From Bacteroidales bacterium (GTDB lineage Bacteria > Bacteroidota > Bacteroidia > Bacteroidales > B18-G4), in assembly GCA_018400295.1 (NCBI GenBank), contig JAGYMZ010000012.1:1129-65128 (forward strand): DNA of 64,000 bases, written 5' to 3'. Both the position numbers and the translations under genes were made by a program. The notes under the pieces were generated by a model. That model was given only the letters and a program-made list of their open reading frames with translations, made no database searches and was not told where the DNA came from. Below are positions 36,690 to 64,000 of this stretch, piece after piece (the first letter of the stretch is position 1; every line of letters starts with the position of its first letter).

Positions 36690-37961
36690 ATGCGTGCCTG
36701 GATTTTTGTTTTGTTTGCATTTCTGGGAAGCACTGGTTGGAGCCAGGATATTACATACGCCCGTGATATCCTGGATAAATTGACTTCTCCGGGAATGCAC
36801 GGGAGAGGATACTATAAGAAAGGGGATAAAAAGGCTGCGCGGTTCATCAAAAGGGAATTTCGTAAAAATGGAATACATGCCTTTGAAGGGAACTATTTTC
36901 AGAAGTTTGATCTTCCGATCAATACCATCCGGGGAAGGGTGGAACTTACCATAAATAACCGTAAACTGGATCCGGGACAGGACTTTCTTATTGCTGCCTT
37001 TTCCCCGGGTATGCACAGGACATTTACTCCTTTGTGGCTGACCGGCGATTCTTTGGATGCAGCCAGTGCGGAGCATTTGCATGAAAAATATGACCTTTCC
37101 GAAAGGATCATCATTACCGGTTCGCATCACAAAAAACTTACCCGCGGCAATTATTTGAATGCGCATGCCATCATCCTGAAAGACGAGGAGGAACCATTGT
37201 GGTGGCATGTTTCTAACGGGCGTGAACAAGCAGACCATGTTGTGATCGACCTGAAAAAGGATGCCCTCCCTGAAGGCGGCGTGGAGTCCGTTGAAGTTCG
37301 GTATAGAAGCCGGTACATAGAGAAATACAGGACACAAAATGTGATCGGTTTTATAAAAGGGCATGCTGAACCCGACAGTTTTCTCGTATTTACAGCGCAT
37401 TATGATCATCTGGGAAGAATGGGCAAGGAAACGTATTTTCCGGGTGCCAACGACAATGCCAGCGGAACTGCTATGGTCATGGACCTGGCACGGTTTTTCG
37501 GCGAGCCCGGGAATGCTCCCGCTTATTCGGTTGCTTTTATGCTTTTTGCAGGGGAGGAAGCCGGCTTGGAGGGTTCCCGGTATTGTGCCGATAACCCGCC
37601 ATTTCCTCTGTCCCGTATTAAGTTCCTGATCAATCTGGACATGATAGGCACCGGGAGTGAAGGCATAACCGTTGTTAACGGAACGGTTTTTAAAAAGGCA
37701 TTCGGATGCCTGCAACGGATCAACAAAGATAAAGGATACCTTGCGGAGGTGAAAGTCCGTGACGAATCCTGCAACAGCGACCATTGCCCTTTTTACCAAA
37801 AAGGCGTCCCTTCCGTATTTATCTATACCCGTGGAAAGGAGTATTCTGAATACCACACCATAACAGATATGGCAGAGGATCTGCCCCTGACCGGATATGA
37901 AGATCTGTTCGGGCTGCTGGTCGATTTCGTACATTCATTTGCCGAAGGCCGAAAAAAATAA
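36690..37961 (+). CDS. M28 family metallopeptidase
   Basis: AHYDHLG, GANDNASG, GEEAGL, NLDMIG, SDH, YH motifs; signal peptide. Confidence 0.9.
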   Translation: MRAWIFVLFAFLGSTGWSQDITYARDILDKLTSPGMHGRGYYKKGDKKAARFIKREFRKNGIHAFEGNYFQKFDLPINTIRGRVELTINNRKLDPGQDFLIAAFSPGMHRTFTPLWLTGDSLDAASAEHLHEKYDLSERIIITGSHHKKLTRGNYLNAHAIILKDEEEPLWWHVSNGREQADHVVIDLKKDALPEGGVESVEVRYRSRYIEKYRTQNVIGFIKGHAEPDSFLVFTAHYDHLGRMGKETYFPGANDNASGTAMVMDLARFFGEPGNAPAYSVAFMLFAGEEAGLEGSRYCADNPPFPLSRIKFLINLDMIGTGSEGITVVNGTVFKKAFGCLQRINKDKGYLAEVKVRDESCNSDHCPFYQKGVPSVFIYTRGKEYSEYHTITDMAEDLPLTGYEDLFGLLVDFVHSFAEGRKK

Positions 37962-42200: not shown

Positions 42201-43310
42201 GATCCTTATGTTGGCATTACAGGTAACAGCATACAGGAAATCGGTTCTGTTCCTGTTGGCGATACCCCATCGGCGGATTACGATATAGAAGCAAGCTTTA
42301 ATGCGCCCCATGGACATATTCCGGGGTTGGTCCTGGAGATCCGTGAAGATGGCTTGCCGGTGTGCAGAGATACGATAGAGCTGATGATCGGGAAAATGCC
42401 GGCCCTGGTCATTGACCTGGACCCACAAAACCATTCCGGACCGGTCATATTTAATACGATTCGGGATATGAACATTCCATGCCGGTATACCCGGGCCTTC
42501 CCCGTGGAAGATCTGAACAAATACCAGTCTGTTTTTCTGAGTCTCGGCATTCATTTTTCCAACCACATCCTTACACATGATCAGGGAAACCTCCTTGCAG
42601 GGTTTCTCTCGGACGGCGGAAGGTTATACATGGAAGGCCGCACCACCTGGGGGGATGATCCCCAGACTTCCGTTCATGATATGTTCAATATGGATGCGAT
42701 CTCCATGCCAACGATGTACGGGGTACTGCTTGGCCAGGACAGTACCTTCACACAGGGAATGGCCTTTGAAAATTCCGCCACACCTCCATTTGCATACTAT
42801 TATCTGGAACCTGTTGCGCCTGCATATGCCATTTTTAAAAATGCCACCGACAGCCTGGCCTGTGTGATCGCCCAGAATGCAGGAACGTATAAGACCATCG
42901 GTTCCATTACGGAATTTGGCGCATTGATCGGGAACGACTCTTCCACATATACCGGACTTATGTCGGAAATGCTGGACTTTTTTGATATTGTTCTTACCGT
43001 GGCGGGTATGGAGGAGCATGAGGCAAAACCGTTTCTTTCGGATGTTGTTTGTTTTCCCAATCCTTTCCGGGAACAGACAGAAATACGTTTTACGCTGGCC
43101 TCACCATCGGAAGTTGGCATTCAGGTTTTTAACCTTCAGGGACAGCTTATGGACCGGATTTTGAGATCCAGACGCATGCACGGTGGATCGCATACCGTTG
43201 CGTGGAATATTTCAGCTGGCGTGAACAAGAATATGCCGGAAGGAATTTACATATATAGAATATTCGCAGGAGATCAGGTGTTTACGGGTAAAATGGTGCT
43301 GTTGCGATAA
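39297..43310 (+). CDS. T9SS-secreted papain-like (C1) cysteine peptidase, multidomain; true start probably downstream of 39297
   Basis: LPVWVDNS, Q....NC, LHGMTIIGY, VNSY...WADKG; signal peptide ending VSAQ; FPNPF...GIYIYRI CTD. Confidence 0.8.
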   Translation: MPSPRWLPMEERIFFALITRCLWCDTNCCRKMKIATRTDLFNDIILLEKKGNRTWLPAKRHVLNRLLFVLIPMYFMQVSAQQRDYYDPDFQRSIGYHVTEADAAQYKNIPVLNLPEDYRNKDLPVWVDNSLQPYLRPVFSQESYPNCMQSTSIAYNYTYEINRSRGIPSDVPENQYTTHFSWNFYNGGDGWYGVNYLHTFNVLEKCGNPTVTDYGGMYNGGGSRWMSGYDEYYAAMKNRITGIYAIPVDTEEGILTLKHWLNDHLDGSDVGGVASFIACSPYSLLKLPEATPEAGKYVIASWCDRALHGMTIIGYNDSIRFDYNGDGKYTNDMDINGDGEVNVRDWEIGGFKFVNSYDTTWADKGFSYVMYKTFADPIQENGIWGNQVHVINVKQNYDPTIACKVKLKHDSREMIKITAGVSGDPECPYPRKILEFPIFDFQGGDKYMQGSDTIEMNRIIEFGLDITPLLSFVETGKESRFFLTVTERDERNEGHGEILSFSLMDYSGVSPVEIPCPQNNVPLANNFKTHLGVVTSINFDKPEILTHALPGYQPGTQFSHTLQAQGGKEPYNWHLKKNYNVSMEHGAFPGFSGSLISTNSGEDTVHSIPLDFSFPYFGKAYDTLHVSDGGYIYFDEGVRFWSYIWKQRDFLKDIKSISPFLSKQLCLDPGNDDGLWYKQESDNIMFSWDGTAKDQPLDSDLQFAVQLFDDGTVVFYYGNMIFEGNIEWAGGLSDGDGINHSILDASDPGLLAKGSKIRFIPGNFPANAEINRQGELTAFIPENSGIFDLEVVLTDDHNISHSRQYQLSDGLAIDYIIHSGDDTIIEPGETVSLDVVVKNVSAGTVPDISLEMSTSDPFISITDPSEVIGKLDPGDHVTKVNAIEFHVSESAPDTYTARILSMLNSPGNSWESSMFAMIHAPELGIHEYSIVDGDNQRLDPGESATISISIQNTGHAGAGNVTASLHSIDPYVGITGNSIQEIGSVPVGDTPSADYDIEASFNAPHGHIPGLVLEIREDGLPVCRDTIELMIGKMPALVIDLDPQNHSGPVIFNTIRDMNIPCRYTRAFPVEDLNKYQSVFLSLGIHFSNHILTHDQGNLLAGFLSDGGRLYMEGRTTWGDDPQTSVHDMFNMDAISMPTMYGVLLGQDSTFTQGMAFENSATPPFAYYYLEPVAPAYAIFKNATDSLACVIAQNAGTYKTIGSITEFGALIGNDSSTYTGLMSEMLDFFDIVLTVAGMEEHEAKPFLSDVVCFPNPFREQTEIRFTLASPSEVGIQVFNLQGQLMDRILRSRRMHGGSHTVAWNISAGVNKNMPEGIYIYRIFAGDQVFTGKMVLLR

Positions 43311-43421: not shown

Positions 43422-45395
43422 ATGAATTGCAGAAAACTTTTTATGATGTTCCTGGCGATCGGAATGTCTGCATCTTTTCTTTTTGCGCAGGAAAAGAAAT
43501 ACGTTCCGGGGGAACTCATCGTTCAATTTGATCATTCCAACCCGCAACAAGTTTTAATGGACAAGCTTGTCAGGGATTTTTCAGACATACAGCTGCAACC
43601 TGTGAAAATACTATCAAAAAGGCTGAATATCTGGCTTGTTTCTTATCAGGAAGGATCACGCAAGGATACACGCATACTTGCCGCTGTGAGAAATTCCACG
43701 GGTATATCCAATGCCCAGTTCAATCATTATGTGTCCTTACGGGAGACAATACCGGATGATGATTATTTTGAAGACCAATGGGCGTTATATAATACCGGAC
43801 AATCCGGAGGTGTTGAGGATGCGGATATTGATGCGACCGATGCATGGGACATCACTACCGGGGGATTAACCGTAAATGGTGATACCATTGTTATAGCCAT
43901 CATCGATGACGGTTTTTATCTTGCGCATGAGGATGTCCGTTTCTGGAAAAACCGGAATGAGATCCCGGGCAATGGCATCGATGATGATAATAATGGATAC
44001 ATTGATGATTATGATGGCTGGAATGCATACACTTCCTCTGGGAATATTTATGCTCAGGATCACGGGACACATGTAAGCGGGATTGCCGGTGCCATTGGCA
44101 ATAATGGCCTGGGTGTTTCAGGGGTTGGCTGGGGTGCACAAATATTGCCTGTGCAGGGGTCCTCACAGGTGGAGTCGACGGTGGTAGAGGCCTATGGATA
44201 CGTTTATGAGCTTCGCGCAACGTATAACGAGACTGCCGGAGCGCAGGGGGCCTTTGTTGTTGCTACCAATGCTTCTTTTGGCGTTAATCAGGGTCAGCCA
44301 GAAAATTTTCCCGTTTGGGGGTCGATGTATGATTCCCTGGGCACTATCGGAGTGATCAGTGCGGGTGCAACGGCCAATGCTTCATGGGACATTGATGAGG
44401 TGGGGGATATTCCAACCGCCTTCCCCAGTGATTTTCTGATCAGTGTTACCAATACTACTAGGAAAGATGAAAAGAATGCCAGTGCGGGCTACGGAGAAGT
44501 CACCATTGACCTTGGTGCCCCTGGAACAACGGTGATGTCTACCAGAAACGGAAATGCCTATGGCATGAAGTCGGGGACCTCCATGGCAAGTCCCCATGTA
44601 GCCGGTGCTGTCGGCCTCTTGTTTGCTTCAGCACGGGCGGGGTTTTTGGCAGCATATCATGAGGACTATGCAACGCTGGGCGTGATCCTGAAGGAATACA
44701 TCCTGGAAGGCGTGGATACCCTCTCTGATCTTCAGGGTAAAACTGTCTCCGGAGGCAGGTTGAATGTGTTTCATTCAATGCAGTTTATGATCAATGATGC
44801 CTTTTTTCTCAGTGAAGATACTCTTGGAATGACCTTGAATCCGGATTCCTCGGATAGTTCCTTTTTTATTGTTGCCAATACCAATCCGGTCAACCTGGCG
44901 TATGAGTTGATCATACCGGAAAACCCCATGTGGCTGAGTACCGGTATACAGCAGGATACCCTGATTTCTATGGGCACTGATACGGTATGGGTTCGTTTTG
45001 ATGCCACTGGCCTGGGGGTGGGAAATTATTCCGCTGATATCTTGGTTTCCAATATCCTGGGCGAGGAGCATATCCTTGTATGCAGATTACGCGTGGTTCC
45101 GTTGGCACTTACACCCGAAGGTCACGGAGTGGAAAAGATGCATTTATCTGTGTATCCGAATCCGTTTTCCGGCATCCTTCATGTTGAAGCGGCTTCCCAT
45201 GCCGGGAACCAGGTAAGGGTGGATCTGCTGGATATTCAGGGAAGGCACCTCACAAAAATTTCAGTAAACCCAACCCTCAGCACTGATCATAGTATTTCCT
45301 GGCAGGTTCCGGAATGGCTTGTTCCCGGCATTTACTTTGTTTCCGTTTCGGGCAACGGGAAGGCTGCATACCGCAAGGTGGTGCATGTTCCCTGA
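43422..45395 (+). CDS. T9SS-secreted S8 (subtilisin-like) serine peptidase
   Basis: Triad IIDDG, HGTHVSG, GTSMASPHVAG; YVPGELIV prodomain; YPNPF...GIYFV CTD. Confidence 0.92.
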   Translation: MNCRKLFMMFLAIGMSASFLFAQEKKYVPGELIVQFDHSNPQQVLMDKLVRDFSDIQLQPVKILSKRLNIWLVSYQEGSRKDTRILAAVRNSTGISNAQFNHYVSLRETIPDDDYFEDQWALYNTGQSGGVEDADIDATDAWDITTGGLTVNGDTIVIAIIDDGFYLAHEDVRFWKNRNEIPGNGIDDDNNGYIDDYDGWNAYTSSGNIYAQDHGTHVSGIAGAIGNNGLGVSGVGWGAQILPVQGSSQVESTVVEAYGYVYELRATYNETAGAQGAFVVATNASFGVNQGQPENFPVWGSMYDSLGTIGVISAGATANASWDIDEVGDIPTAFPSDFLISVTNTTRKDEKNASAGYGEVTIDLGAPGTTVMSTRNGNAYGMKSGTSMASPHVAGAVGLLFASARAGFLAAYHEDYATLGVILKEYILEGVDTLSDLQGKTVSGGRLNVFHSMQFMINDAFFLSEDTLGMTLNPDSSDSSFFIVANTNPVNLAYELIIPENPMWLSTGIQQDTLISMGTDTVWVRFDATGLGVGNYSADILVSNILGEEHILVCRLRVVPLALTPEGHGVEKMHLSVYPNPFSGILHVEAASHAGNQVRVDLLDIQGRHLTKISVNPTLSTDHSISWQVPEWLVPGIYFVSVSGNGKAAYRKVVHVP

Positions 45396-51752: not shown

Positions 51753-52298
51753 TTAATCCCTGATAATCAATGGGGTGCTGATGGTGTTGCTTTCGTTGAG
51801 GGACCTGTCTACCAGTGTGACATCAAATCGTATGGTATCAAAGGGAGAACTAAAATTGTAAATAAAAATAGTATCCCGGATCTCTCCGGAAATGGCTTTA
51901 TTATTCCCAGCCGGGGTTAACATCGGTACACGCGCTGAAAGGGACAGTGTATCAAATTCCTGAGTTTGGGAATTGTAAACAACGATGGGTACTTTTTTCA
52001 GGGTGCCGTTTTGGAATTCATAATAATCAATCAGGAGATTATGATAATATTTTGAGTCCGGATCAAACGGCGGGAATGTGTCACCGGGAGCAAGTCCAAT
52101 GTCACCATTCCCGTCTTTATAGGATATGGATATAACCCCACGGTCATAAAGCTCCAGTTCTGGGTTATATATCTTTTGGAACCCCTCGTACTGAATAACC
52201 GGTATATCGGGAAAATCTTCCTCACGCAGGCAGGATGCCAGAGCAAGCACCATGACACTTACAAAAAATAGGCGTATTTTTGAATGACGAATATGCAT
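51753..52298 (-). CDS. Hypothetical lipoprotein (181 aa)
   Basis: MHIRHSKIRLFFVSVMVLALASC lipobox; P.I.Y, DGNGDIG, DRSLNESN.I.TP; the track's longer start overlaps the next gene. Confidence 0.8.
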   Translation of the reverse strand: MHIRHSKIRLFFVSVMVLALASCLREEDFPDIPVIQYEGFQKIYNPELELYDRGVISISYKDGNGDIGLAPGDTFPPFDPDSKYYHNLLIDYYEFQNGTLKKVPIVVYNSQTQEFDTLSLSARVPMLTPAGNNKAISGEIRDTIFIYNFSSPFDTIRFDVTLVDRSLNESNTISTPLIIRD

Positions 52299-52322
52299 AC
52301 CGGATAAAATTACTAAAAAGCC

Positions 52323-53330
52323 TTGAGACAACGATCCGAATATTCTTTTAGCGAACATAAAAACAAGATCTTTTCTGTTAGGTCTTCCGGGGAATTTAAC
52401 GAGCGGGCATTGGAGATATTTCATTTTCAATACAGGAATAACCCGGTATATAAAGAATACCTTGATGTTTCCGGAGCAGACCCATACGCTGTTACATCTG
52501 TGGATCAAATACCTTTTCTTCCGGCGGAGATCTTCCGGAACCGGAAAGTGCTTTGCAAGGCAATGGATCCGGACCTGGTTTTCTTCAGCAGCGGTACTGC
52601 AGGCATGGAGCAAAGCAAGCATTACATTGCCGATCCTTTGCTTTATGAAGAAAGCTTTTTTCGCTCGTTCCGGCACTTTTTCGGCGGAGTGGAAGGGAAA
52701 TGCATCCTTGGTTTATTGCCTTCTTACCTGGAGAGGCAGAATTCTTCACTGGCTTATATGATCAAACGGTTTATAGAAAAAAGCGGGGTAAAGGAAAGCG
52801 GATTTTTTTTATATAATTATAAAAGGCTCTATGAGGTGCTGATGGATACATATGAACGAGGCATGCCTGTGTTCCTCTTCGGTGTGAGTTTTGCCCTGCT
52901 TGATTTTTCCGAAAGATTTCCAATGCAATTTCCTGGCTTGCATGTCATCGAAACGGGAGGCATGAAAGGCCGCAGGAAAGAATTCATTCGGGAGGAACTG
53001 CACAGACAGCTTATGAAGGGTTATGGGGTGGATCATATAAGCAGCGAATACGGTATGACGGAACTTTTATCCCAGGCATATGCACCCGGGGATGGTTTGT
53101 TTGCAGCACCTCCCTGGATGAAAATCTTCATTAAAGATGTTTATGATCCTTATTCCGCTGTGGAAAAAGGGAAAACCGGCACGATCAGTATCGTTGACCT
53201 GGCCAATGTATATTCATGTTCATTCATTGCTACCCGGGATTTGGGAAAAATGCATCCGGATGGCCGGTTTGAAGTCCTTGGCCGGGCTGACACCAGCGAT
53301 ATAAGGGGATGCAATTTACTGGTGACCTGA
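52323..53330 (+). CDS. LuxE-like acyl-protein synthetase / acyl transferase
   Basis: IPFLP, FSSGT, LLPSYLER..SSL, ETGGMKGRR, SEYGMTELLSQAY, FEVLGR.D...RGC. Confidence 0.87.
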   Translation: MRQRSEYSFSEHKNKIFSVRSSGEFNERALEIFHFQYRNNPVYKEYLDVSGADPYAVTSVDQIPFLPAEIFRNRKVLCKAMDPDLVFFSSGTAGMEQSKHYIADPLLYEESFFRSFRHFFGGVEGKCILGLLPSYLERQNSSLAYMIKRFIEKSGVKESGFFLYNYKRLYEVLMDTYERGMPVFLFGVSFALLDFSERFPMQFPGLHVIETGGMKGRRKEFIREELHRQLMKGYGVDHISSEYGMTELLSQAYAPGDGLFAAPPWMKIFIKDVYDPYSAVEKGKTGTISIVDLANVYSCSFIATRDLGKMHPDGRFEVLGRADTSDIRGCNLLVT

Positions 53331-53371
53331 TCACAAAACCGATGGCATGTTGATCTTATACGGGAAAATGT

Positions 53372-56300
53372 TTAGCGGGCTATGATGATCTTTGCCGCCT
53401 TTTTTACATTATCCTGTATCAGTATGCCAATATATAATCCTTCAGGAAAATCATGCAGGTTTATGGTCATATCCTTTTTATCTGCGGGTATTTTCCAGTT
53501 ACCCATGGTTTTCCCAAGCAGATCAATGATCATGAATTCTGTGCCTTGCGTTGTTTGATGGTTCAGTGTGATCTTCAGGATGCCGGATGTAGGATTGGGA
53601 TGGAATGACACAGGAAGGTCGTTCACCGGTTCCTGAATATTTGTGGTATTATCCAGGATCACTTCGCAGGGATCTGATTCCGGTCCGGATCCGCACATAT
53701 TGGCAGCCGACACACGAATGTGTGCGGTTCCCATATAATTGGCATTCCAGATGGCAATTGCAGTTTCATTATTTCCTTCCATTATTCCGGCCTCCCCGGG
53801 TTCCAGGTACCAGTTATAAGCTGTTGCCCCTGGCAGAGGATCAATGCTGTATTCGGAATACTGTACCGACAGCAGGTCCACGTAACCCGGTCCATCAGGT
53901 ATGTCCGGCATTCCGGGAATTCCTGTAATATCCAAAGCCATTTCATCTTCTACAGAGGAATCTCCATCACCATAGGCTGTAAGGGTCAGAAGTACGCCCC
54001 CGTTTTGAATGTCTTGGGTACTAGGGGAATATACCGGGTTAAGCAGGGTTTCATCATTGAAGGTGCCTGTCCCGGAGGTATTCCATTCCAGTGCGTTGTA
54101 TGCAGTGGCTTCTCCGTGGCACTGAAAATCCTCATCCGTGCAGATAACTTCATCCGGTCCGGCGTAACAGGTCAGGGTTGTCTTCGGGGGCATGATGATA
54201 AAGTCAAGCCAGGCCTGATCGGCACCTGCACTGCCGGTGGCATCCTTTGCATATACCCATTTAAATGTATGATTGCCTGTGGGAACAAAAAAGGTTTCTT
54301 TTGTCCATCCCTGATACGTTCCTGACCATTCTGCTTTCAGGTTGCCGTTAATATAGAATTTTAACTTATCCAGATCTTCTTCAGAAGACACCTTTTTTAT
54401 GAAAGAAATACTGTCGCTGGTCATGGTTCGCATCTGGAGACTGAGCACACACTTCTCACCGTTGTCAATGGCCCCGGTTTTTGCACTGTATATACCTTCA
54501 TAAGGGTATGTGCTGGTTATTTCCCACGGCTCATCCCCTCCCATTTCCCAGTCGAATTTTGTGAAATCACCGGTTTCAAAATCTTCAACCAGCAAACCCA
54601 GTTTTTTCCGGAACACCTTGCTTTTTTCGTAAGCATTGGACTGCAGATGATAGTTGAGATAGGCAAATACAACCCCATTGGGGGTTTCAGGGTCAACCAC
54701 AACTTCAAATTCAGCATATTTGTACCCGATTTGATTAAGCTGGCCTATGGAGTCTGTTGTATTTTGGAATTCGAGATAATGGCATGAGGTTTCAATGGTT
54801 GCCAAACAGTTGTTGGCAGGGCAATGTCCGGTATTTCTGTTCTTTACTTTCAGAATGGCGGTTTCACCGGGATCCAGCCGGCCATTGTTATTTCCCTGGC
54901 TGTCATCGATAACCATTTCAAGAATGGTAAGTACGGGGCCATATCCCAAATCATCAAAATGGCTTGTCCAGGTGGTATCTGATATGGCGGTTACTGTGAA
55001 ATTGATCAGATGCTGGTCCGGTAAGTTTTCGGCCACCAGAAATGTAAAAGCGTTCTCTTTGGTTGCGGACTGGCCTGGGTCCAGACTGCCGTAGGATTCT
55101 GTTGAGTCTATCCAGGTAATGTATGGATCATTGGTGCCCAAACACACGTCTACATTTTCTGAGGCCACGGTACCAATATTTTTTACGGTGAAATCGAGGG
55201 AAATATTTTCCCCGAATTCAATGACGGAATTGCCGTTGGAAGCTGTATCAACAATTGTATGCGACTCATAAACCACGTAAGGCTCATCGGTGATCACCAA
55301 AATGCTACCCGTGTGTCTGATGCGGTTATGGCATATCACGGATGCCTGGATGGGTTCTTCGGAAGAAAGGGGTTCAAAAAGGTCCAGGAGGAGATTGCCC
55401 GCATCATCAGCCAGGCCTCTTCCGATAAGGGAGCCATCCTGCATTAATCCGATGCGTGCTCCCGGGGCATCTGTTTCTATGGAAATTTGTGAGGTCCCTA
55501 TGGAAATTGCCGGCGGATAAGAAGCTACGATCGGTGCAGGCTGGGCAGTCCAGATGTCCAGGGTGGGGTCTCCGAACAGGTTCAGTTCATAGTAGCACCA
55601 ACGGATGGCACCGCTGTGAGCATTGATAAAAGCTACGTTATCTTCTTTGGAATCCCTGTTGGCTTCCCCGATCATGGTAATATCTTCTCCGAAAACGGCA
55701 TCAAAAAATTGCCTGTCAAAATACTGCGAGGCACCGTCCGTACTCATATGCTGGCCCCAGCCGTACCGTGAATTGCCAATGTTTGCCACATCTGCGGTTT
55801 CCATGGTGGTAATTTTCTCAGAGAAACAATCTTCGGTGTAATATCCCGGTGATGTTTCCCGGTTATCGAAGGCGCCGTTGTAGCATCCCTGGGAATATCC
55901 GATGGCAAACCCGCGGGTTATTCCGTCATTCGTGAAATTGGTTGTTGTGAGGTCCGTATTATACATCAGCATGTTATATGTGGTACCGGAATGCCCGAGG
56001 TGGTTCCTCAGGTTGACCCCAACATTGCTATATTGATGAAAAACATCATTTTTATCCCAATACATGTCCCGCTCATATAAATACGTTATGTTAAAATTCG
56101 AAGAAAGTCCCACGGTAGTATATCCATGATTGGAACTTCCGAGGGCAACTTCATCCTTATAGTCTCCTCCCCAGGTGGGTTCCGGCCATAGCATCTCACC
56201 AAGCCACAAGGCTTTTTCAATGTCTTCGTTTACGGGGTCATCCTGGTACAGGATATGCTTGTTGACGACATTCTGAATTTCCGTGGAATCATCGGCACAG

Positions 56301-57373
56301 ATCCTTCCAATCCCAACTTCTGCGTACAGGTCTTCTTCGCCCGGTTCTCCATAACGCTGATCGTTATCATCGTCCCAGTTGCCATCCAGGTTGGAATAAT
56401 AGATGTCTGCCGGGAGATCTTCCTCGGGGGTGCTGTATGCATTGCAATAGAAACCACGGTGTGGAATGACGTCTTCCGATGCATTGTTCGGATCGCTGTC
56501 CCCCCCGAGGATAACCCATTGCACGTTGTAGTTCTGTACATGGTCGATGATACAGTTCCTGATCTTATCCTGCTGGTCTGTCCCGGAATATATTGAGAAA
56601 ATATCTTCTGTTGTAATGATGGACGTTATATACCCGGTAGACCTTTTATAGTCCGTATAATCTTCAAAATAAGGCATCAGGTTTTGATTCGTGATCAAAA
56701 GGATGTCGATCTCATCAGATGATTTTCCATCCGGGTAGGTATATTCCTCAAGTTTTCCGGGATTCTCGACGATGTGTTGGATCCGTTGCCTGGACCTATC
56801 CGGGTTTACCAGGAATTTTTGGGCTTCTGCTGCGTCAGCGGAGTTTTTTAGAACGATTTCAAGGGTTATGGATTTCAGGAAGCCGGCCGTATTTCCCCCC
56901 GGGATGTATGTGACCGGACAAAGGGTAAGGGAACCTATCCCGTGACCGGACAAAAAACCGGTATGTATGTTGTCTGCAATACGTTCCGGATAGGGTTCCA
57001 TTGAAGAATACAATTCTTTGTCGGGGCTAACCGTATAGGTAGCCTGCTGGTCCGATAACGGGAACTGCCTTCCTGCCGGCTTGATGGTGATGGATTCTTT
57101 ATCCCCGTAGTACGCGGTCGAAACGATATTTACCCCTGAAATTTCTGTGTTCTGTGGCAACAAAAGGCTTACCGCTTTATGGGGCATGGAAGGATACCCT
57201 TCGGGACCAAAATTATAGCAATCCGGATAGGAAATTACCGTGTATTCTCCTTCACTGATCAAAACAGGATATGGAAAATGGTATGTTTTTGTGAGCGTTT
57301 GTGATAATGCCGGAATAATAGCCATGATCACTATGGTAGCCAGCAATAATGTCCTTTTCATAACACTGTTCAA
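53372..57373 (-). CDS. C25 family (gingipain-like) cysteine peptidase, T9SS-secreted
   Basis: Propeptide; VILGGD, NHLGH, SQGCYNG, NLFGDP; Ig and jelly-roll tail; HPNPTSG...GLYI CTD. Confidence 0.88.
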   Translation of the reverse strand: MNSVMKRTLLLATIVIMAIIPALSQTLTKTYHFPYPVLISEGEYTVISYPDCYNFGPEGYPSMPHKAVSLLLPQNTEISGVNIVSTAYYGDKESITIKPAGRQFPLSDQQATYTVSPDKELYSSMEPYPERIADNIHTGFLSGHGIGSLTLCPVTYIPGGNTAGFLKSITLEIVLKNSADAAEAQKFLVNPDRSRQRIQHIVENPGKLEEYTYPDGKSSDEIDILLITNQNLMPYFEDYTDYKRSTGYITSIITTEDIFSIYSGTDQQDKIRNCIIDHVQNYNVQWVILGGDSDPNNASEDVIPHRGFYCNAYSTPEEDLPADIYYSNLDGNWDDDNDQRYGEPGEEDLYAEVGIGRICADDSTEIQNVVNKHILYQDDPVNEDIEKALWLGEMLWPEPTWGGDYKDEVALGSSNHGYTTVGLSSNFNITYLYERDMYWDKNDVFHQYSNVGVNLRNHLGHSGTTYNMLMYNTDLTTTNFTNDGITRGFAIGYSQGCYNGAFDNRETSPGYYTEDCFSEKITTMETADVANIGNSRYGWGQHMSTDGASQYFDRQFFDAVFGEDITMIGEANRDSKEDNVAFINAHSGAIRWCYYELNLFGDPTLDIWTAQPAPIVASYPPAISIGTSQISIETDAPGARIGLMQDGSLIGRGLADDAGNLLLDLFEPLSSEEPIQASVICHNRIRHTGSILVITDEPYVVYESHTIVDTASNGNSVIEFGENISLDFTVKNIGTVASENVDVCLGTNDPYITWIDSTESYGSLDPGQSATKENAFTFLVAENLPDQHLINFTVTAISDTTWTSHFDDLGYGPVLTILEMVIDDSQGNNNGRLDPGETAILKVKNRNTGHCPANNCLATIETSCHYLEFQNTTDSIGQLNQIGYKYAEFEVVVDPETPNGVVFAYLNYHLQSNAYEKSKVFRKKLGLLVEDFETGDFTKFDWEMGGDEPWEITSTYPYEGIYSAKTGAIDNGEKCVLSLQMRTMTSDSISFIKKVSSEEDLDKLKFYINGNLKAEWSGTYQGWTKETFFVPTGNHTFKWVYAKDATGSAGADQAWLDFIIMPPKTTLTCYAGPDEVICTDEDFQCHGEATAYNALEWNTSGTGTFNDETLLNPVYSPSTQDIQNGGVLLTLTAYGDGDSSVEDEMALDITGIPGMPDIPDGPGYVDLLSVQYSEYSIDPLPGATAYNWYLEPGEAGIMEGNNETAIAIWNANYMGTAHIRVSAANMCGSGPESDPCEVILDNTTNIQEPVNDLPVSFHPNPTSGILKITLNHQTTQGTEFMIIDLLGKTMGNWKIPADKKDMTINLHDFPEGLYIGILIQDNVKKAAKIIIAR

Positions 57374-57380
57374 TTAGGGT

Positions 57381-60300
57381 TTATTTGTTGATGATCAATT
57401 TTTTCGTCGTTTTCCAACCGGCGCCTTCTGCAGCAATAAAATACAATCCTGCCGGCAGGGAACCCAAAGTGAGATTGATGGACCGTTGACCGTTCATGGC
57501 AAGCTGTTCTTCATAAACAATGCTGCCCACGACAGTAAATACCCTGAGGTCAACATGTTCACGAACGGGGGTTGTAAAGTGGACTGTAAACCTGTCCCGC
57601 CCCGGGTTGGGATAAATGGTCATTCCTTTCTGATCCTGAATTTCATGAAGCCCTACCGGGTTGTTAACAGTAATTTCCAGGCTTTCAGAAAATTCACTGT
57701 CGCCGCACCCGTTTGTGGATTGGACGTTGAGGGTTGCAAAACCGGAATATTCTTCATTCCAAACGACGCGGCACGTAGTGCCGGTTCCCGTGGAAGTCCC
57801 GGCATCTGATGGCTCCAGTACCCAGTTGTATGCGGTTGTATGAGGGACGCTATTCGTTTCATAAAACGATACGGGCATGCTAATCCAATCAATGTTGTCC
57901 GGGCCGGATGGTTTATCCGGAGTTTCCGGAATGGTGATGAAGGTAATTTTTGTCACGTCCTGGAAGGAATCGCCCTGGGAACCGGTAACCGTCAGGGTCA
58001 GTTCCACAGATCCGTCTTCAATATCTTCGTTGCTGGGCGTATAAAGAGGTTGCAGTATGGAGGGGTCGTTGAATGTTCCGGTACCGGAAGTTGTCCAGTC
58101 CGCCGTTTGCCATGCAGTGGCTTCCCCCTGGCACAGATAATCATTGGTTTCACAGCATACATCATCCGGGCCGGCGTAGCAGGTAAGTGCCATCAGTGGA
58201 GGCATTACTACAAAATCGAGCCATCCGCAATCACTGCCAGCGCTTCCCTGTCCATCTTTCTGGTACACCCATTTATAGGTATGGCTTCCGGTAGGTGCAG
58301 GCACAGCAATGTATTGCCATCCTGCTGAAGTCCCTGACCATTCCCCTTTAAGGGTGTTGTCAATAAAGAATTTTAACTTATCCTGATTTGATTGTGAAGA
58401 TACTTTCTTTATAAACGTAATGCTGTCGGCGGTCATGACATTCAGGGTCAGCGACAGGGTACTGGTCTGTCCGTCTTCAATGGTGCCGGATTTGGCACTG
58501 TATATTCCCTCATAGGGAAAAACATCCGTGATGGTCCAGGGCTCGTTTCCTCCCATTTCCCAGTCGAATTTTTCAAAATCACCGGTTTCAAAATCATCAT
58601 AGATCAGGCCCAGCTTTCGGCGGAAGGTTTTATCTGCCTGGAAGGGGCCTGCCTCCAAATGATAGATGAAGTCAGCCAGCACACATCCGTTGGGTGTTTC
58701 AGGATGTACGTGAACAGTGAACGTGGCATATTTAAAACCGAGCAAGCCTAATGCGCCTATGGTATCGGTGGTATTTTCGAATGTCACATAGGCATTATAG
58801 GCATTGAGGGTAGCAACAGCATTTTCCGTGATGCAATGCCCGGTATTTTTATTCTTGATTTTTAAATCTGCGGTTTCACCCGGATCCAGCCGCCCGTTAC
58901 CATTGCCAAACTCACTGTCGTCTATGATCATTTCCTGTATTGATAGTACAGGTCTGTTCAGGGTAACCGAAAAATCTGTTGTCCAGGTTTCTTTCCCTTC
59001 TGCTTCCATGACCATATCAAATACGACAATATGCTGGTCCTCGATATCTTCCTGGACCTGGAAAGTGAAGGCATTTTCCTGGGAGGCTGTTGACAATCCT
59101 GGTACGATACCCCATTCCTGATAATCATCTGTCAGGATTATATTCGGGTCGGCAGAAGAAATGCTTACCTGTGTATTGGTTGCATCAGCATTGCCCAGGT
59201 TTTCCAGTTCCATCGTCAAGGATACCAATTCGTTATAATCTGCATGATGGTTGTTATTGCCCAGGGAATCCTCAATAATGAAGTCTTTCAGCACAAGAAA
59301 AGCACCATTGGGGTTGGCTACCGTGACTGTGCCAAAATATGGTTCGCCATTTTGTTTTGTTACGATGACATCTGCCGGGCCCGGAACTGAAAACGGTGTG
59401 ATGGGCAGTTCCAGAAAGCCGGTCTCATCGGCAATATCTGCTCCATGCAGCACGCCATCCCTTGATAATGCAACGTATGCATAAGGCTCTGTGTTGACCA
59501 CAAAAGTTGTTGATGAAAGGGGCAGTAATTCATCATAATTTACTGCGATCACCGGTGGCTCAGAAAAATAGACCATGAGGGAGGGGTCGCCCATGAGATT
59601 GTAAATATCCCAGTAATAATCTGCCATTCCGGGGGATCCTTCCAACACGGCAAGGTTTCCTGCATAAATCATTTGATCGGCCGTAACGAACCAGTCTTCA
59701 AATGGCTCACCATGGTCGTGAAAGGACCGGTCATAGGAACCCAGCGTGGTTTCTTCATAGGGTGGGGGTATTTCGGATATTTCGCCGACCCCTACAGCGT
59801 AATAGTAATCTTCATCCCAGTAAGTACTGTTGGAAGCACCGATATATCCTACGGATCCTTTATTTTCCGCCCTTAGCAATGCCTCGGCGAAACATTCACT
59901 TACCTGGTATTCGCTTGATGAGCAACAGTTACCGACCAGCACTCCATATTTACTTTCATTTTCAAGGCTTGCAATGTCGGAAATTGTAAAAGAAGGGTCG
60001 GCCCATCCGTTCGGACTGCAATGGGCGGTATAATTTCCAAAGGTGACCCCATCGCTTATGTTTTGGATGATCTGGGCACTGGAGCTTCCGGATTCGGGGT
60101 AAAGATAGTCATGGGCGAGGATGCCATGATCCTGGTTGAAATAATTTGTGGTTCCGTAGTTGATCTGACCATTGCCCCAGTCATGGCCATGGCCGGCATC
60201 CACACCGGAAACCAGCACAACTTCGTCCAGGTAGGACGGATCGGGCATGGTATATTTTTCGTATTCAATGGTTTTGTCTATATACGGTTGAAACTGGTCT

Positions 60301-61370
60301 TCATTTTGAGCGGAAAACCGTCCGTAGAAGATCTCGGGAAGGAGGTCCCCGGTAAATTCACAGTAATTTCTGTCCGTTACACCATTTCCGTTATCATAGG
60401 AAGGGATTTGTTCAATATCTCCGGCAAAGACGACAAAAGAGGGTGCCGGGTCTTCCGGTGTGCCGGCATCATACAGGGATTGAATATATGCTTTGATCGA
60501 GGCGAGACTGCTTCCAACGTTTTGTTCATCCGTATATGCTTCAACAACGGTGAACCCTTTTTGCTTTTTCCATTCGATCAGGGGTTGTAGCTGCGTTTCA
60601 AACATGCGGTCGGCGATAATCACGTATTTAACGGGATACCGGGTAAAGTTTTCCCGGTTTGAGAGGGGCTTATAATTCAGCAGCAGGTTGTTAAGCGGTT
60701 CGAAATAGATGGAGGCCAGACGTTTCTTTAGATCCAGGGTTGCCTGTGTATCTGCATTTTCGAATAGAATTTCAAACCTGATGTTGTCGTATACCATTAG
60801 CTGGTGTGTAACGGGATTGTACCGGACCGGAGCGATATTCAGCCGTGCAATTCTTGTGCTGCGCATAAATCCAATAACGTCAACCGAAACGAGTTCTTCC
60901 TGAAAGTACCTGTCGGTTTGGTAAGCCGTTTCATCATAGATAAAATCATGCTGGTCATCACTTTTAGACCTGGGAGGTTGAAGAGGGTACAGCGGGTGCC
61001 GGATATCCAGCACAGAGAGGTCGATTATGGTATGCGATGCTGATGTGATCTTTACGACCGGTTCCGCTCCTACGGGAATTTCGATCAGTTCACGTTTGAC
61101 CGGCAGTTCTGGTTTGCCGGGTTCCAGGCTTCTGGCATATCCCGGTATGGAGATCCTGGTGAACTTTCCCTGTTCGGTTTGGATTTCGTGATTCCTGACC
61201 GTACCGGTGGTTATCATACCGCCCAGTCTTTGATAAGTATTATCCGTCAATTCCAATACATTTTCCATGGCAGGATTGACAAGGATGTCCTGTGGAAATG
61301 AAGCATGTGGAATAAGAAATGAAAATATGGCGGCGATCAGGCCTAAGCCTTTAAATATGTTGCGATGCAT
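57381..61370 (-). CDS. C25 family cysteine peptidase, Lys-gingipain (Kgp)-like, T9SS-secreted
   Basis: GKPELP propeptide; GRFSA, YEKY, NYTAHC, GNCC, YWDEDYY, YNLMGDP; YPNP CTD. Confidence 0.9.
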   Translation of the reverse strand: MHRNIFKGLGLIAAIFSFLIPHASFPQDILVNPAMENVLELTDNTYQRLGGMITTGTVRNHEIQTEQGKFTRISIPGYARSLEPGKPELPVKRELIEIPVGAEPVVKITSASHTIIDLSVLDIRHPLYPLQPPRSKSDDQHDFIYDETAYQTDRYFQEELVSVDVIGFMRSTRIARLNIAPVRYNPVTHQLMVYDNIRFEILFENADTQATLDLKKRLASIYFEPLNNLLLNYKPLSNRENFTRYPVKYVIIADRMFETQLQPLIEWKKQKGFTVVEAYTDEQNVGSSLASIKAYIQSLYDAGTPEDPAPSFVVFAGDIEQIPSYDNGNGVTDRNYCEFTGDLLPEIFYGRFSAQNEDQFQPYIDKTIEYEKYTMPDPSYLDEVVLVSGVDAGHGHDWGNGQINYGTTNYFNQDHGILAHDYLYPESGSSSAQIIQNISDGVTFGNYTAHCSPNGWADPSFTISDIASLENESKYGVLVGNCCSSSEYQVSECFAEALLRAENKGSVGYIGASNSTYWDEDYYYAVGVGEISEIPPPYEETTLGSYDRSFHDHGEPFEDWFVTADQMIYAGNLAVLEGSPGMADYYWDIYNLMGDPSLMVYFSEPPVIAVNYDELLPLSSTTFVVNTEPYAYVALSRDGVLHGADIADETGFLELPITPFSVPGPADVIVTKQNGEPYFGTVTVANPNGAFLVLKDFIIEDSLGNNNHHADYNELVSLTMELENLGNADATNTQVSISSADPNIILTDDYQEWGIVPGLSTASQENAFTFQVQEDIEDQHIVVFDMVMEAEGKETWTTDFSVTLNRPVLSIQEMIIDDSEFGNGNGRLDPGETADLKIKNKNTGHCITENAVATLNAYNAYVTFENTTDTIGALGLLGFKYATFTVHVHPETPNGCVLADFIYHLEAGPFQADKTFRRKLGLIYDDFETGDFEKFDWEMGGNEPWTITDVFPYEGIYSAKSGTIEDGQTSTLSLTLNVMTADSITFIKKVSSQSNQDKLKFFIDNTLKGEWSGTSAGWQYIAVPAPTGSHTYKWVYQKDGQGSAGSDCGWLDFVVMPPLMALTCYAGPDDVCCETNDYLCQGEATAWQTADWTTSGTGTFNDPSILQPLYTPSNEDIEDGSVELTLTVTGSQGDSFQDVTKITFITIPETPDKPSGPDNIDWISMPVSFYETNSVPHTTAYNWVLEPSDAGTSTGTGTTCRVVWNEEYSGFATLNVQSTNGCGDSEFSESLEITVNNPVGLHEIQDQKGMTIYPNPGRDRFTVHFTTPVREHVDLRVFTVVGSIVYEEQLAMNGQRSINLTLGSLPAGLYFIAAEGAGWKTTKKLIINK

Positions 61371-61503
61371 GGTATGTTGTTTTTTGTTGTTTCGGTTGAT
61401 CTGTGGATTAAAGCAACAAAGGCATTACCGGAAAGGATCCTGGTTCCTGATTATGGACCCCATACCGGTAAATGGCTGTTTTCTTGCTGTATGTATTTTT
61501 TAA

Positions 61504-64000
61504 TTATTTATTTATAATGATCTTTTTCGTAATCGCCACATTTTCACCTTCGAGCAGGAGGAAATACATGCCTTCTGAAAGATCTTTCAGGTTGATATCC
61601 TGATGGTGTTCTCCGCTGGATATTTCAATACTGCGGGAGTAAATTTCCATACCCACTGCATTAAATATTTTAAGATGAAGCGTCTTATCACTTTTTCCAT
61701 TGACGGCAACCTGGAAATTGCCGTTGGTTGGGTTCGGGTATGCGTGTATACCCCATTCCGAAGACATTTCTGCCAAAGACACCGTGTTATCAATTGTAAT
61801 ATCAAGGGCCTCGGAATATTCACTGGCGCCGCATATATTGAATGCTTTAACGGCTAACTGGGCAGTTCCAAGGTAAGCGTTGCTCCATTCCACCGTGGCG
61901 ATGGTACCATCCCCTGAAACGGTGCCTGCTTCTTCCGGTTCTAGCAGCCACTCATAGGATTCGGCAAATTCAACGTCTGATATGGTATATTCGGTAACCG
62001 GATTTACCAAAACATCTACATACTCCGGGCCTTCAGGTTGCGCTGGCGTTGGTGGTACATCAATGAATTCCAGGATCATTTCATCATCCACTGTACTGCC
62101 TTCGTTGTCGGTAGCCGTGATGATTAATTCAACCATGCCGGAAGCAACATCTTCCGTACTTGGTGTGTAGACCGGATCAATCAGGGTGGGATCATCAAAA
62201 GTCCCTGTGCCTGTACTGCTCCATTCAATGGTTTGCCAATCCGTTGCTTCCCCTGAACATTGGTAGGGGGTGGTGCCGCAATTAACATCATCCGGGCCGG
62301 CGTAACAGGTAAGTGCCATCAGCGGGGGCATAATGATCCAGTCGAGCCATGCGCAGTCACTGCCGGCTACTCCCTGTGCATCTTTCTGATAAACCCAGCG
62401 GAACGTTCGCCACCCGGGGTTCACGGGAAACGCTTCATTTTTCCATCCCTGCGTCGTCCCTGACCATTCGCCTTTCAACGTATTATTGATATAAAATTTC
62501 AGCTTGTCACCATTGTGGGAGGACACTTTCCTGACGAAGTAGATGCTGTCGGCTGTCATAACCTCAAGCGTGATCTTGAGTTCACTGGTTTGGCTTCCAT
62601 CTATGGCGCCTGACCTGGCACTGTATATGCCTTCATAGGGGAATACGGATGAAATGATCCAGTCTTCATCCCCGTCCATTTCCCAGTCAAATTTGCTGAA
62701 GTCCCCTGTTTCGAAATCTTCAAAAATGAGCCCAATTTTTTGTGAGAAGCTTTTTTCTTCCAGGAAACCTCCGGAGATCAATTCGTAGTCGAATTCTGCA
62801 ATAATGCTTCCGTTTGGGGCTTCCGGATCGACATGAACGGTATATTCCGAATATTTAAAGCCGATCAGACCCATGTTGCCAATGCTGTCGACCGTATTGT
62901 CGAATGTCAGGTAGTGACATTCGGTAAACAATGTACCGATGCAGTTTTCAGCAGGACAATGGCCCAGATTCCGGTTCTTTATCTTAATGACTGCCGTCTC
63001 TCCGGGATCCAGTCGACCGTTGCCATTGCCTGTCTGGCTGTCGTCTATGATCATTTCGTTGATGGCAAGGATTGGGGCGTATGCTTCTACCGGGCAAAAG
63101 CTGATCCAGGATGAGTCATTTTCATCCGTTGCAATCACATCAAACAGGATCTCATGTTCATCCGGAACATTGTCGGCTACGTGTATTGTGAATCCGCCGG
63201 GAACTGTGACCGACTGTCCTGCCGGTATGTCACCGTAGTTTTCCGTAGAATCATATATGGTTGTATATTCATCGGTGGTACGGATTATGACATCCACATT
63301 CATGGCGTCTACACCTCCCATGTTTTCCATTTCTAAAGAAAGTCCGACGGTTTCTCCAAAGTCAAGATAATTGTTATTGTTGCCTGCCGTATCAATGATG
63401 TCGTGTGATTCATATAAAACGTATGGAATATTTGCCGGAATGACCTCTATTTCGTCAAGAACGGGCAAAAAATTGAATCCCGTTATGGCCAGGTCAAGGA
63501 TCCCGGGTGCTGTCAGTTCTGGGAAAGTCAGCGTAGCACTGCCATTTTCAATAAATGCAGTGGAAAAGATCTCCCCGTCTTGTGTTAAACAAACAAGGCC
63601 TCCTTCCGCATCGGAAGTAACCGTGAATGAGCTCATCCCTATGAAAATGTTATTGCTGTATGTAGCATTCATAATTTGCGGGAAAGCTGTACGGACCATG
63701 ACCGAAGGGTCGCCAAAGCAGGTCCAGGTGTCTGTCATTTCATCTCCGGCAGATCCAAATTCATCATTCATTTTCATGCATCCGTGCATGGATAAGCCGC
63801 CAAAGGTTCTCTTGATATTATCCGGGTATGTTTCCACCAGGATATCCACCATCTCATCCTGGCCGCACATGGGCGGGTCCCAGCTTTGATTGATGGTTGA
63901 CATCAGGGTGGCAACTGCACCGGTGGGATTGCCATTATTGGTAGCCCTGAGCCATGCTTCAGCAAAACAAGTGTTGCCTACAAAATTTCCATTGACACAG
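61504..64000 (-). CDS. C25 family cysteine peptidase, Arg-gingipain (Rgp)-like, 5'-truncated by the window edge
   Basis: Frame open to the window end: CVNGNFVGNTCFAEAWLRA...GNPTGAVATLMSTINQSWDPPMCGQDEM...WTCFGDPS; shared tail; YPNPTNG CTD. Confidence 0.88.
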   Translation of the reverse strand, partial: CVNGNFVGNTCFAEAWLRATNNGNPTGAVATLMSTINQSWDPPMCGQDEMVDILVETYPDNIKRTFGGLSMHGCMKMNDEFGSAGDEMTDTWTCFGDPSVMVRTAFPQIMNATYSNNIFIGMSSFTVTSDAEGGLVCLTQDGEIFSTAFIENGSATLTFPELTAPGILDLAITGFNFLPVLDEIEVIPANIPYVLYESHDIIDTAGNNNNYLDFGETVGLSLEMENMGGVDAMNVDVIIRTTDEYTTIYDSTENYGDIPAGQSVTVPGGFTIHVADNVPDEHEILFDVIATDENDSSWISFCPVEAYAPILAINEMIIDDSQTGNGNGRLDPGETAVIKIKNRNLGHCPAENCIGTLFTECHYLTFDNTVDSIGNMGLIGFKYSEYTVHVDPEAPNGSIIAEFDYELISGGFLEEKSFSQKIGLIFEDFETGDFSKFDWEMDGDEDWIISSVFPYEGIYSARSGAIDGSQTSELKITLEVMTADSIYFVRKVSSHNGDKLKFYINNTLKGEWSGTTQGWKNEAFPVNPGWRTFRWVYQKDAQGVAGSDCAWLDWIIMPPLMALTCYAGPDDVNCGTTPYQCSGEATDWQTIEWSSTGTGTFDDPTLIDPVYTPSTEDVASGMVELIITATDNEGSTVDDEMILEFIDVPPTPAQPEGPEYVDVLVNPVTEYTISDVEFAESYEWLLEPEEAGTVSGDGTIATVEWSNAYLGTAQLAVKAFNICGASEYSEALDITIDNTVSLAEMSSEWGIHAYPNPTNGNFQVAVNGKSDKTLHLKIFNAVGMEIYSRSIEISSGEHHQDINLKDLSEGMYFLLLEGENVAITKKIIINK

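Follow-up and report, generated by a model that had tools for sequence, protein, structure and literature searches.

Rgp-like, Kgp-like and third-type C25 protease genes in tandem in a Bacteroidales bacterium, most likely the end of a larger protease array

Genes and domains at the locus

Research on gingipains, peptidases of family C25, has dealt almost exclusively with their part in the virulence of a single oral pathogen. Here, we describe three consecutive C25 genes on a 64,000-nucleotide stretch of DNA (the window) from a Bacteroidales bacterium. The window covers positions 1129-65128 of contig C4 (JAGYMZ010000012.1) of the source genome G000 (GCA_018400295.1), which comprises 2.63 Mb in 91 contigs and is 92% complete. 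An earlier note, made from the letters of the window, had reported three co-oriented C25 genes with gaps of 133 and 7 bp, and this arrangement is confirmed by the minus-strand open reading frames and their Pfam matches. The motifs that it quoted are also present, namely CVNGNF, CFAEAWLRA, STINQSW and GQDEM in the edge gene (C4_c), NYTAH, GNCC and YWDEDYY in the middle gene (C4_b), and NHLGH, SQGC and RYGWG in the third gene (C4_a). The features of the trio are as follows, where class III is one of the five classes of catalytic domain (head) distinguished below.

61504..64000 (-): C4_c, Rgp-like C25 gene; reading frame to 63999, open at the window end, C-terminal 831 amino acids visible
61513..61740 (-): sorting domain of C4_c, 52.4 bits
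61371..61503 (-): spacer between C4_c and C4_b, 133 bp, with the 7-bp inverted repeat TTACCGG / CCGGTAA
57381..61370 (-): C4_b, Kgp-like C25 gene, 1329 amino acids, long open reading frame
60735..61190 (-): propeptide of C4_b, Propeptide_C25, 68 bits
59571..60626 (-): catalytic domain of C4_b, Peptidase_C25
60198-60200 (-): third catalytic Asp of C4_b (aligned with Kgp Asp388), invariant in 7/7 Kgp-like sequences
60021-60023 and 59922-59924 (-): catalytic His and Cys of C4_b by alignment to Kgp, invariant in 7/7 Kgp-like sequences
59808-59810 (-): S1 Asp of C4_b (aligned with Kgp Asp516), invariant in 7/7 Kgp-like sequences
58197..58619 (-): domain X in the tail of C4_b (residues 918-1058), a beta-sandwich module common to type-A tails
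57390..57617 (-): sorting domain of C4_b, 42.9 bits
53372..57373 (-): C4_a, class III C25 gene; 1333 amino acids from the TTG at 57373, or, likelier, 1329 from the ATG at 57361
55556..56701 (-): catalytic domain of C4_a, Peptidase_C25, residues 225-606
55991-55993 and 55883-55885 (-): catalytic His and Cys codons of C4_a, invariant in 9/9 class III sequences
55766-55768 (-): Arg of the NSRYGW motif of C4_a, invariant in 9/9 class III sequences
53381..53602 (-): sorting domain of C4_a, Por_Secre_tail, 35.2 bits (cut-off 27)

Each of the three genes encodes a signal peptide, a C25 propeptide, a C25 catalytic domain, an immunoglobulin-like (Ig-like) domain, a tail of about 570 amino acids and a type IX secretion system (T9SS) sorting domain. 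The corresponding Pfam matches are Propeptide_C25 (where that part is present), Peptidase_C25, the Ig-like Peptidase_C25_C, PKD-like and Por_Secre_tail. With C4_c scored at full length, Propeptide_C25, Peptidase_C25_C and the sorting domain are above their cut-offs in all three genes, and Peptidase_C25 (PF01364, cut-off 23) reaches 176.6 and 191.5 bits in the two whole genes and 187 bits in C4_c. It should be noted that the window cuts C4_c at its catalytic Cys (codon 63997-63999), which is the first visible residue. The complete protein, read from the genome, has 1306 amino acids and starts 1424 bases past the window end; its catalytic His and S1 Asp, which lie outside the window, were taken from the genome sequence. 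Since only the last 102 catalytic residues fall within the window, the window fragment scores 20.4 bits against Peptidase_C25, below the cut-off. For C4_a, the ATG start gives a normal signal peptide and a gap of 19 bp to C4_b. The reading frames of the trio, as well as those of the further C25 genes described below, are open, with no internal stops.

Assignment of the three genes to types

For the type assignment, the proteins were compared with the sequences of all solved structures in the PDB. C4_c matches RgpB (4ief_B) over the catalytic and Ig domains with an E-value of 6.3e-99 and 335.3 bits, compared with 69.1 bits for Kgp, and its prodomain matches the RgpB prodomain (E 1.1e-39). C4_b matches Kgp (4rbm) over the catalytic and Ig domains with an E-value of 9.1e-88 and 298.8 bits, compared with 90.3 bits for RgpB, and its prodomain matches the Kgp prodomain 5mun (E 1e-31). 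The comparison thus supports, by a large margin over the other type in each case, the assignment of C4_c as Rgp-like and of C4_b as Kgp-like. The best PDB match of C4_a, and the only one at E <= 0.01, is RgpB with 36.5 bits. The aligned catalytic His and Cys are kept, and the scores support that C4_a belongs to neither the Rgp nor the Kgp type. In all three cases this agrees with the earlier note. A PorU identity was also tried for the window genes and rejected, as the two whole genes score 37.4 and 38.3 bits against NCBIfam NF033707, whose cut-off is 420.

C4_c keeps His211, Cys244 and the S1 Asp163 of RgpB, and this Asp, which lies in GEYDYE, is invariant in 7/7 R-like sequences; with Glu152, these are the catalytic and S1 positions of RgpB. 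In addition, an Arg directly precedes YTPV at the propeptide junction of C4_c, which corresponds to the start of the mature RgpB chain. In the alignment, C4_b is identical to Kgp at His444, Cys477, Asp388 and the Lys-binding Asp516, numbered as in the Kgp structure papers; the chain numbering of the alignment fits these numbers. The Asp that the earlier note had placed at the Lys-binding position is therefore kept in C4_b, and the adjoining sequence, in which it had suggested looking for the S1 Asp of the Rgp-like gene and for more paralogues, contains both that Asp and a fourth C25 gene.

The gingipain-type heads of the source genome fall into five classes, with 20-32% identity between classes: class R (Rgp-like; C4_c and C67_a), class K (Kgp-like; C4_b and C67_b), class III (C4_a, C4_d and C89_c), class IV (C89_b, C89_d and C89_e) and class V (C89_a). 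Across six genomes, the catalytic His and Cys are invariant in every class (R 7/7, K 7/7, III 9/9, IV 18/18, V 6/6). In class III, the Arg of NSRYGW and the Asp of WG.D are invariant as well. When 37 heads were placed in a quick maximum-likelihood tree with PorU as its root, the five classes appeared as starred clades, with K as sister to IV and the PorU genes of the source genome as the outgroup clade. Judged by the Shimodaira-Hasegawa-like approximate likelihood ratio test (SH-aLRT), C4_c falls in the R clade with a support of 97-99 and C4_b in the K clade with 95-99. Both clades also contain genes from a second family of the order, clearly diverged from the crystal sequences at 279 bits against RgpB and 313 bits against Kgp; these long, unlinked R- and K-like genes of genome G054 served as the outside clade members. 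Of the catalytic-domain phylogeny that the earlier note had proposed, the R, K and PorU clades are thus resolved, while the P. gingivalis enzymes are not among the 37 heads.

The larger protease array

Peptidase_C25 matches 13 genes of the source genome. Contig C4 carries four of these consecutively and C89 another five, and C67 and C14 have two each. Eleven of them, the nine genes of the array and the C67 pair, have the gingipain-type architecture, and the two on C14 are PorU genes. The fourth gene on C4, C4_d, lies upstream of C4_c in the same orientation and 14 bp away. The last 187 nucleotides of the contig (C4:71064-71250) match C89:1-187 at 98.4%, with 3 mismatches, an overlap that supplies the missing part of the sorting domain in the first C89 gene. 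In all five family relatives the order is M14, C89_e, C89_d, one or two non-C25 genes, C89_c, C89_b, C89_a, (C4_d), Rgp-like and Kgp-like, where a C4_d counterpart occurs within the array in only one of the five, and one relative (G004) lacks a gene of the C89_e type and has a second M14 gene. All array genes in the source genome point the same way, and the gaps between them range from about 14 to about 290 bp. Because of the contig overlap and the order in the five relatives, the trio most likely represents the last three genes of an array of about 39 kb with one M14 carboxypeptidase and nine C25 genes. The gene at its head, C89_f, encodes a Peptidase_M14 domain (156.8 bits), a CarboxypepD_reg-type domain and a T9SS sorting domain. 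The assembly break falls inside the array, at the C4/C89 overlap; its probable cause is variation among strains or repeats in the paralogous tails.

The third gene has a different distribution. In the three family members readable behind the Kgp-like gene, no counterpart of C4_a is present there (3/3), and orthologues 78% identical to it occur in two of the three other genomes of the genus, at positions that fit the same trio. Judging from these genomes, C4_a is a genus-specific addition.

A second pair, Kgp-like and then Rgp-like, is found elsewhere in the source genome (C67:52208-59578; L018:1208-8491, minus strand). Its genes lie about 72 bp apart and carry the type-B tail described below, and its Rgp-like head, which shares only 36% identity with that of C4_c, has a long branch in the head tree.

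The stretch, or part of it, is contained in 20 of the 22 listed public runs, from 9 studies of microbialite, freshwater sediment, sediment and salt lake. Three metatranscriptome runs (two studies) each have 21-22 contigs on window positions 52001-64000, nearly all at 99% identity or more and spread over the three genes; one such contig (61281-61624) crosses the 133-bp gap. Parts of the window without contig cover in some of these runs are not thereby silent. The genes may be transcribed as a single operon. A sigma-70 promoter and terminator scan gave 19 and 10 sites, compared with 21.1 and 12.4 expected in shuffled sequence, the sigma-70 consensus being ill-suited to Bacteroidota. In two of the RNA-library runs (X10 and X12), contigs diverge exactly at 57374 and 61510, the two ends of C4_b, into foreign flanking sequence that is identical in both runs. 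Some populations therefore carry the Kgp-like gene with other neighbours on both sides.

Then, could the trio be a three-gene operon of its own, with Arg, Lys and unassigned specificity, that functions apart from the upstream C25 genes? The spacing is short (133 bp and 7-19 bp), two of three other genomes of the genus have the trio in this order with a third gene 78% identical to C4_a, and an RNA contig bridges the 133-bp gap, all of which would agree with it. However, C4_d is co-oriented and just 14 bp from the Rgp-like gene, the unit conserved in 5/5 relatives begins with the M14 gene and ends with the Kgp-like gene, and the three family members readable at this position have no third gene behind the latter. 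Moreover, the loose ends at 57374 and 61510 imply other neighbours in other populations. We regard a separate operon as improbable. The self-contained trio of the earlier note is accordingly replaced by the distal end of a longer array, whose extension beyond the window that note had itself thought possible: C4_d follows on the contig, and C89 is joined by the overlap.

Tails and mosaicism

The tails of C4_a, C4_b, C4_c and C89_a, about 640 amino acids long and termed type A, are 43-51% identical to each other, as against 20-32% between the head classes. Consequently, heads and tails have different histories. The head of C4_a is 60% identical to the C4_d head, whereas its tail is 48% identical to the Rgp-like tail and 36% identical to the C4_d tail, which it does not join in the tail tree. 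C4_a therefore appears to be a chimera of head and tail. Concerted evolution among the tails of one genome was considered and rejected, because the tails cluster by head class within the genus and not by genome, which gives no sign of ongoing homogenisation.

The folds of the tails match only generic beta-sandwiches. Domain X of C4_b has no Pfam family; it was modelled by AlphaFold2 as a beta-sandwich with a predicted local distance difference test score (pLDDT) of 71.9, and is only weakly similar to CBM6/35, to the binding domains of collagenases and to meprin MAM domains (TMq at most 0.59). Neither Cleaved_Adhesin (PF07675) nor DUF2436 (PF10365) was found, in whole proteins at E <= 0.01 or in tail pieces at E <= 5. 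A further, conserved domain of about 210 amino acids, termed type B, is located ahead of the sorting domain in four C25 proteins and in the M14 carboxypeptidase. No Pfam family covers it, its look-alikes in the Atlas are unnamed Bacteroidota clusters, and its AlphaFold2 model is unusable (pLDDT 43.3). The copies are listed below and are 44-55% identical to the first.

L018:5096-5728 (-): type-B domain
L018:1478-2110 (-): type-B domain
L015:4933-5565 (-): type-B domain
L015:16399-17034 (-): type-B domain
L016:1208-1849 (-): type-B domain

Class III heads occur with many different tails in 1715 proteins (E <= 0.001) among 7999 candidates scored. Heads 57-62% identical to that of C4_a are present in records named as metagenome-assembled genomes of Cloacimonadota or Marinimicrobia (P0145, P0155, P0160, P0180 and P0219), and four of these five records match Por_Secre_tail or CHU_C, the partial record P0145 matching neither. 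Class III may thus reach beyond Bacteroidota, or the source bins may be mixed.

Distribution of Kgp-like and Rgp-like heads

Propeptide_C25 matches are carried by 22/22 other sampled genomes of the family, with 2-13 in each. In an even sample of the order, with 401 genomes (including the source genome) and 237 genera, Propeptide_C25 is found in 246 genomes, where at most 7 candidates per genome were scored. Kgp-like heads (E <= 1e-60) occur in 218/401 genomes and 135/237 genera, and Rgp-like heads in 181/401 genomes and 110/237 genera; hundreds of relatives in uncultured Bacteroidales are closer to C4_b than Kgp is. When adjacency was counted by hand in the best 150 rows of each search (218 K and 181 R genomes), K and R heads lay about 2.8-4 kb apart on the same strand and contig in at least 56 genomes besides the source genome. 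Among the matches listed, the order is mostly K and then R, as at C67, and R and then K, as in the window, in four (G005, G007, G116 and G243). In a phylum sample of 350 other genomes, K-like heads were found in 2 of the 343 outside the order, both of one family, and in none of the seven that belong to it.

Linked Kgp-like and Rgp-like genes are therefore the common state in the order and not, as the earlier note had implied, a rarity. That note had also named a published description of the cluster as widespread as something that would speak against its reading. The linkage is indeed widespread in the order, and a full-text search, with subscription journals and supplements outside its scope, found no paper on linked Rgp-like and Kgp-like genes or on C25 arrays in environmental Bacteroidales. 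The survey of cluster conservation that it suggested gives the same gene order in all five family relatives.

A probable secreted protease battery

As a whole, we consider the array of one M14 and nine C25 enzymes to be a secreted surface battery that degrades external protein into peptides, with a probability of about 0.7. The three genes of the trio are uncharacterised members of a known enzyme family, which most likely act within such a surface battery. Each C25 protein would be synthesised in zymogen form, with signal peptide and inhibitory propeptide, exported by Sec and then passed through the T9SS by means of its C-terminal sorting domain. The PorU sortase would remove that domain, and the enzyme would stay on the cell surface or be released. 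By the Asp at the bottom of the S1 pocket, the Rgp-like enzyme is predicted to cut after Arg and the Kgp-like enzyme after Lys, while the enzymes of classes III, IV and V would be active His/Cys peptidases with no specificity assigned. The M14 enzyme may trim the new C-terminal basic residues, by analogy with CPG70 of Porphyromonas gingivalis. Their combined action would supply an anaerobic Bacteroidales bacterium of sediment with peptides made from external protein.

The genome encodes T9SS components, with the translocon SprA (2731 bits), GldM/PorM (328 bits) and two PorU genes, and since these are present, we infer on good grounds that the array proteins are secreted by it. The PorU genes, full-length and in tandem (C14:1907-9632, minus strand; L017:1907-5731 and L017:5802-9632), score 1287 and 1387 bits against the cut-off of 420, match the PorU structure 6za2 with 498 bits and are 53% identical to each other in their catalytic regions; P. 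gingivalis has one PorU. Within the 16 residues before the catalytic domain, an Arg is present in 10 of the 11 gingipain-type proteins of the genome, and C4_a has a Lys, which weakly hints that the proteins may be activated by Arg- and Lys-specific members of the set.

Several observations weigh against this interpretation. C4_c has a Gln aligned with RgpB Glu152, taken here as the third catalytic residue; in a profile-profile alignment, the Asp preceding this Gln aligns with Kgp Asp388, and this neighbouring Asp may stand in for the Glu. In classes III, IV and V, no Asp aligns at either S1 position in a profile-profile comparison whose loops are poorly aligned, and no specificity is assigned to these classes for that reason. 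The hint of cross-activation is weak because a junction Arg is not general: among 47 proteins from six genomes, 27 have Arg, 13 have Lys only and 7 have neither, so that a universal Arg-dependent activation cascade, which was also considered, is only partly borne out. The four Rgp-like orthologues of the neighbouring genus (G010, G011, G014 and G016; loci L019-L029) all read LSD|YTPV, with Asp in place of Arg. Furthermore, the head tree was built without the RgpA, RgpB and Kgp sequences of P. gingivalis, and the join of C4 and C89 rests on 187 nucleotides at 98.4% and on synteny, not on a closed assembly. The RNA evidence is at the level of contigs, where DNA may be present in the libraries and a contig over two genes does not equal a single transcript. 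As a separate observation, the Rgp-like orthologue of G004 has a Lys before YTPV.

The same enzymes could instead mainly process the surface proteins of the cell itself, such as T9SS cargo, fimbriae and adhesins, a role that gingipains also have in P. gingivalis, and not serve feeding. Gingipains are described as also processing fimbrial subunits (PMC10394638), many other T9SS cargo genes are present in the window and the genome, and the long tails are binding-type beta-sandwich modules. However, nine to eleven paralogues of five head classes together with a carboxypeptidase go far beyond the needs of processing, and further secreted peptidases (S8, M28) are encoded nearby. In addition, C25 genes are reported to dominate the exported peptidase genes of anoxic sediments in which Arg-endopeptidase activity was measured (PMC6752024). 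Although the two roles are not mutually exclusive, processing as the main role appears even more doubtful than the separate operon. Finally, we give hardly any credence to the idea that several paralogues are redundant or decaying duplicates and C4_a a recent chimeric copy of no consequence: C4_a is indeed limited to its genus and chimeric in the proportions given above, but all C25 frames are open without internal stops, His and Cys are invariant in the head classes of the duplicates, two other genomes of the genus retain C4_a at 78% identity, RNA-library contigs cover it, and the class III head is widespread.

The window carries five other T9SS cargo or peptidase genes, at 3425-6526 (-), 6650-10081 (-), 39297-43310 (+), 43422-45395 (+) and 36690-37961 (+). 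Their products are a beta-propeller-repeat protein with a sorting domain, two large sorting-domain proteins that match no other family, an S8 subtilase that likewise has a sorting domain, and a peptidase of family M28; for the large protein at 39297-43310, the sorting-domain match is marginal at 26.6 bits.

Implications

The points of interest are the order-wide linkage of K and R heads, the three head classes without assigned specificity, and the mosaicism of heads and tails; none of these findings needs a new mechanism. About half of the genomes sampled from the order have Lys- and Arg-type catalytic domains that retain the specificity residues, usually adjacent to each other, and K-like heads hardly occur elsewhere in the phylum sample. 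Since K and R heads occur order-wide, the split between Rgp and Kgp is placed deep in the order, and the origins of gingipains become directly testable. Moreover, genes annotated as C25 gingipain-like comprise at least five enzyme classes, of which one is predicted to be Arg-specific. A bolder view, which we offer only tentatively, is that a linked K and R pair is ancestral to the order and that P. gingivalis, with its unlinked and adhesin-laden gingipains, is a derived special case. In this view, sediment Bacteroidales have assembled toolkits around the pair, with at least five head classes recombined on shared tails and C4_a as one such chimera, and classes III-V, without the S1 Asp, would represent new P1 specificities for family C25; class III, with the invariant Arg in its S1-lid motif, might favour acidic residues.

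Comparison with known systems

PorU shares the Pfam family PF01364 with the window genes. However, the window genes carry propeptides and score 37-38 bits against the cut-off of 420, and the true PorU genes are on C14.

The environmental C25 genes called gingipain-like, which make up 41-45% of the signal-peptide-bearing peptidase genes in estuarine sediment, resemble the genes described here as exported C25 genes of anoxic sediments (PMC6752024). In the account given there, they are treated as one Arg-preferring or Arg-specific class, and that account reports no head classes or arrays.

CPG70 (PG0232) is described as an Arg/Lys-specific carboxypeptidase and T9SS cargo that trims the products of gingipains (PMC5445135). 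C89_f has the same combination of an M14 domain, a CarboxypepD_reg-type domain and a T9SS sorting domain, and the trimming of Arg and Lys is proposed for it by analogy; it differs in its tail, which carries the type-B domain also present on C25 proteins.

With Kgp (PDB 4rbm, 4tkx and 5mun), C4_b shares the prodomain, the catalytic and Ig domains, the triad and Asp516, and, judging from its sorting domain, it would likewise be T9SS cargo. The adhesins of Kgp are reported to undergo domain rearrangement (PMC5266723). In contrast, C4_b has no haemagglutinin/adhesin domains, but a type-A tail in common with its neighbours, and it sits in an array.

A survey across Porphyromonas describes gingipains as confined, within that genus, to P. 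gingivalis and its two nearest species (PMC10394638). C4_c matches the whole prodomain and the catalytic and Ig domains of Rgp (MEROPS C25; PDB 1cvr and 4ief), with His211, Cys244, Asp163 and the junction Arg. It differs from Rgp in the Gln at Glu152, in its linkage to a Kgp-like gene and in its tail of about 640 amino acids, which consists of CARDB-like, beta-sandwich, Cys-rich and PKD-like modules, whereas RgpB lacks a tail of this kind and RgpA carries haemagglutinin/adhesin domains in its place.

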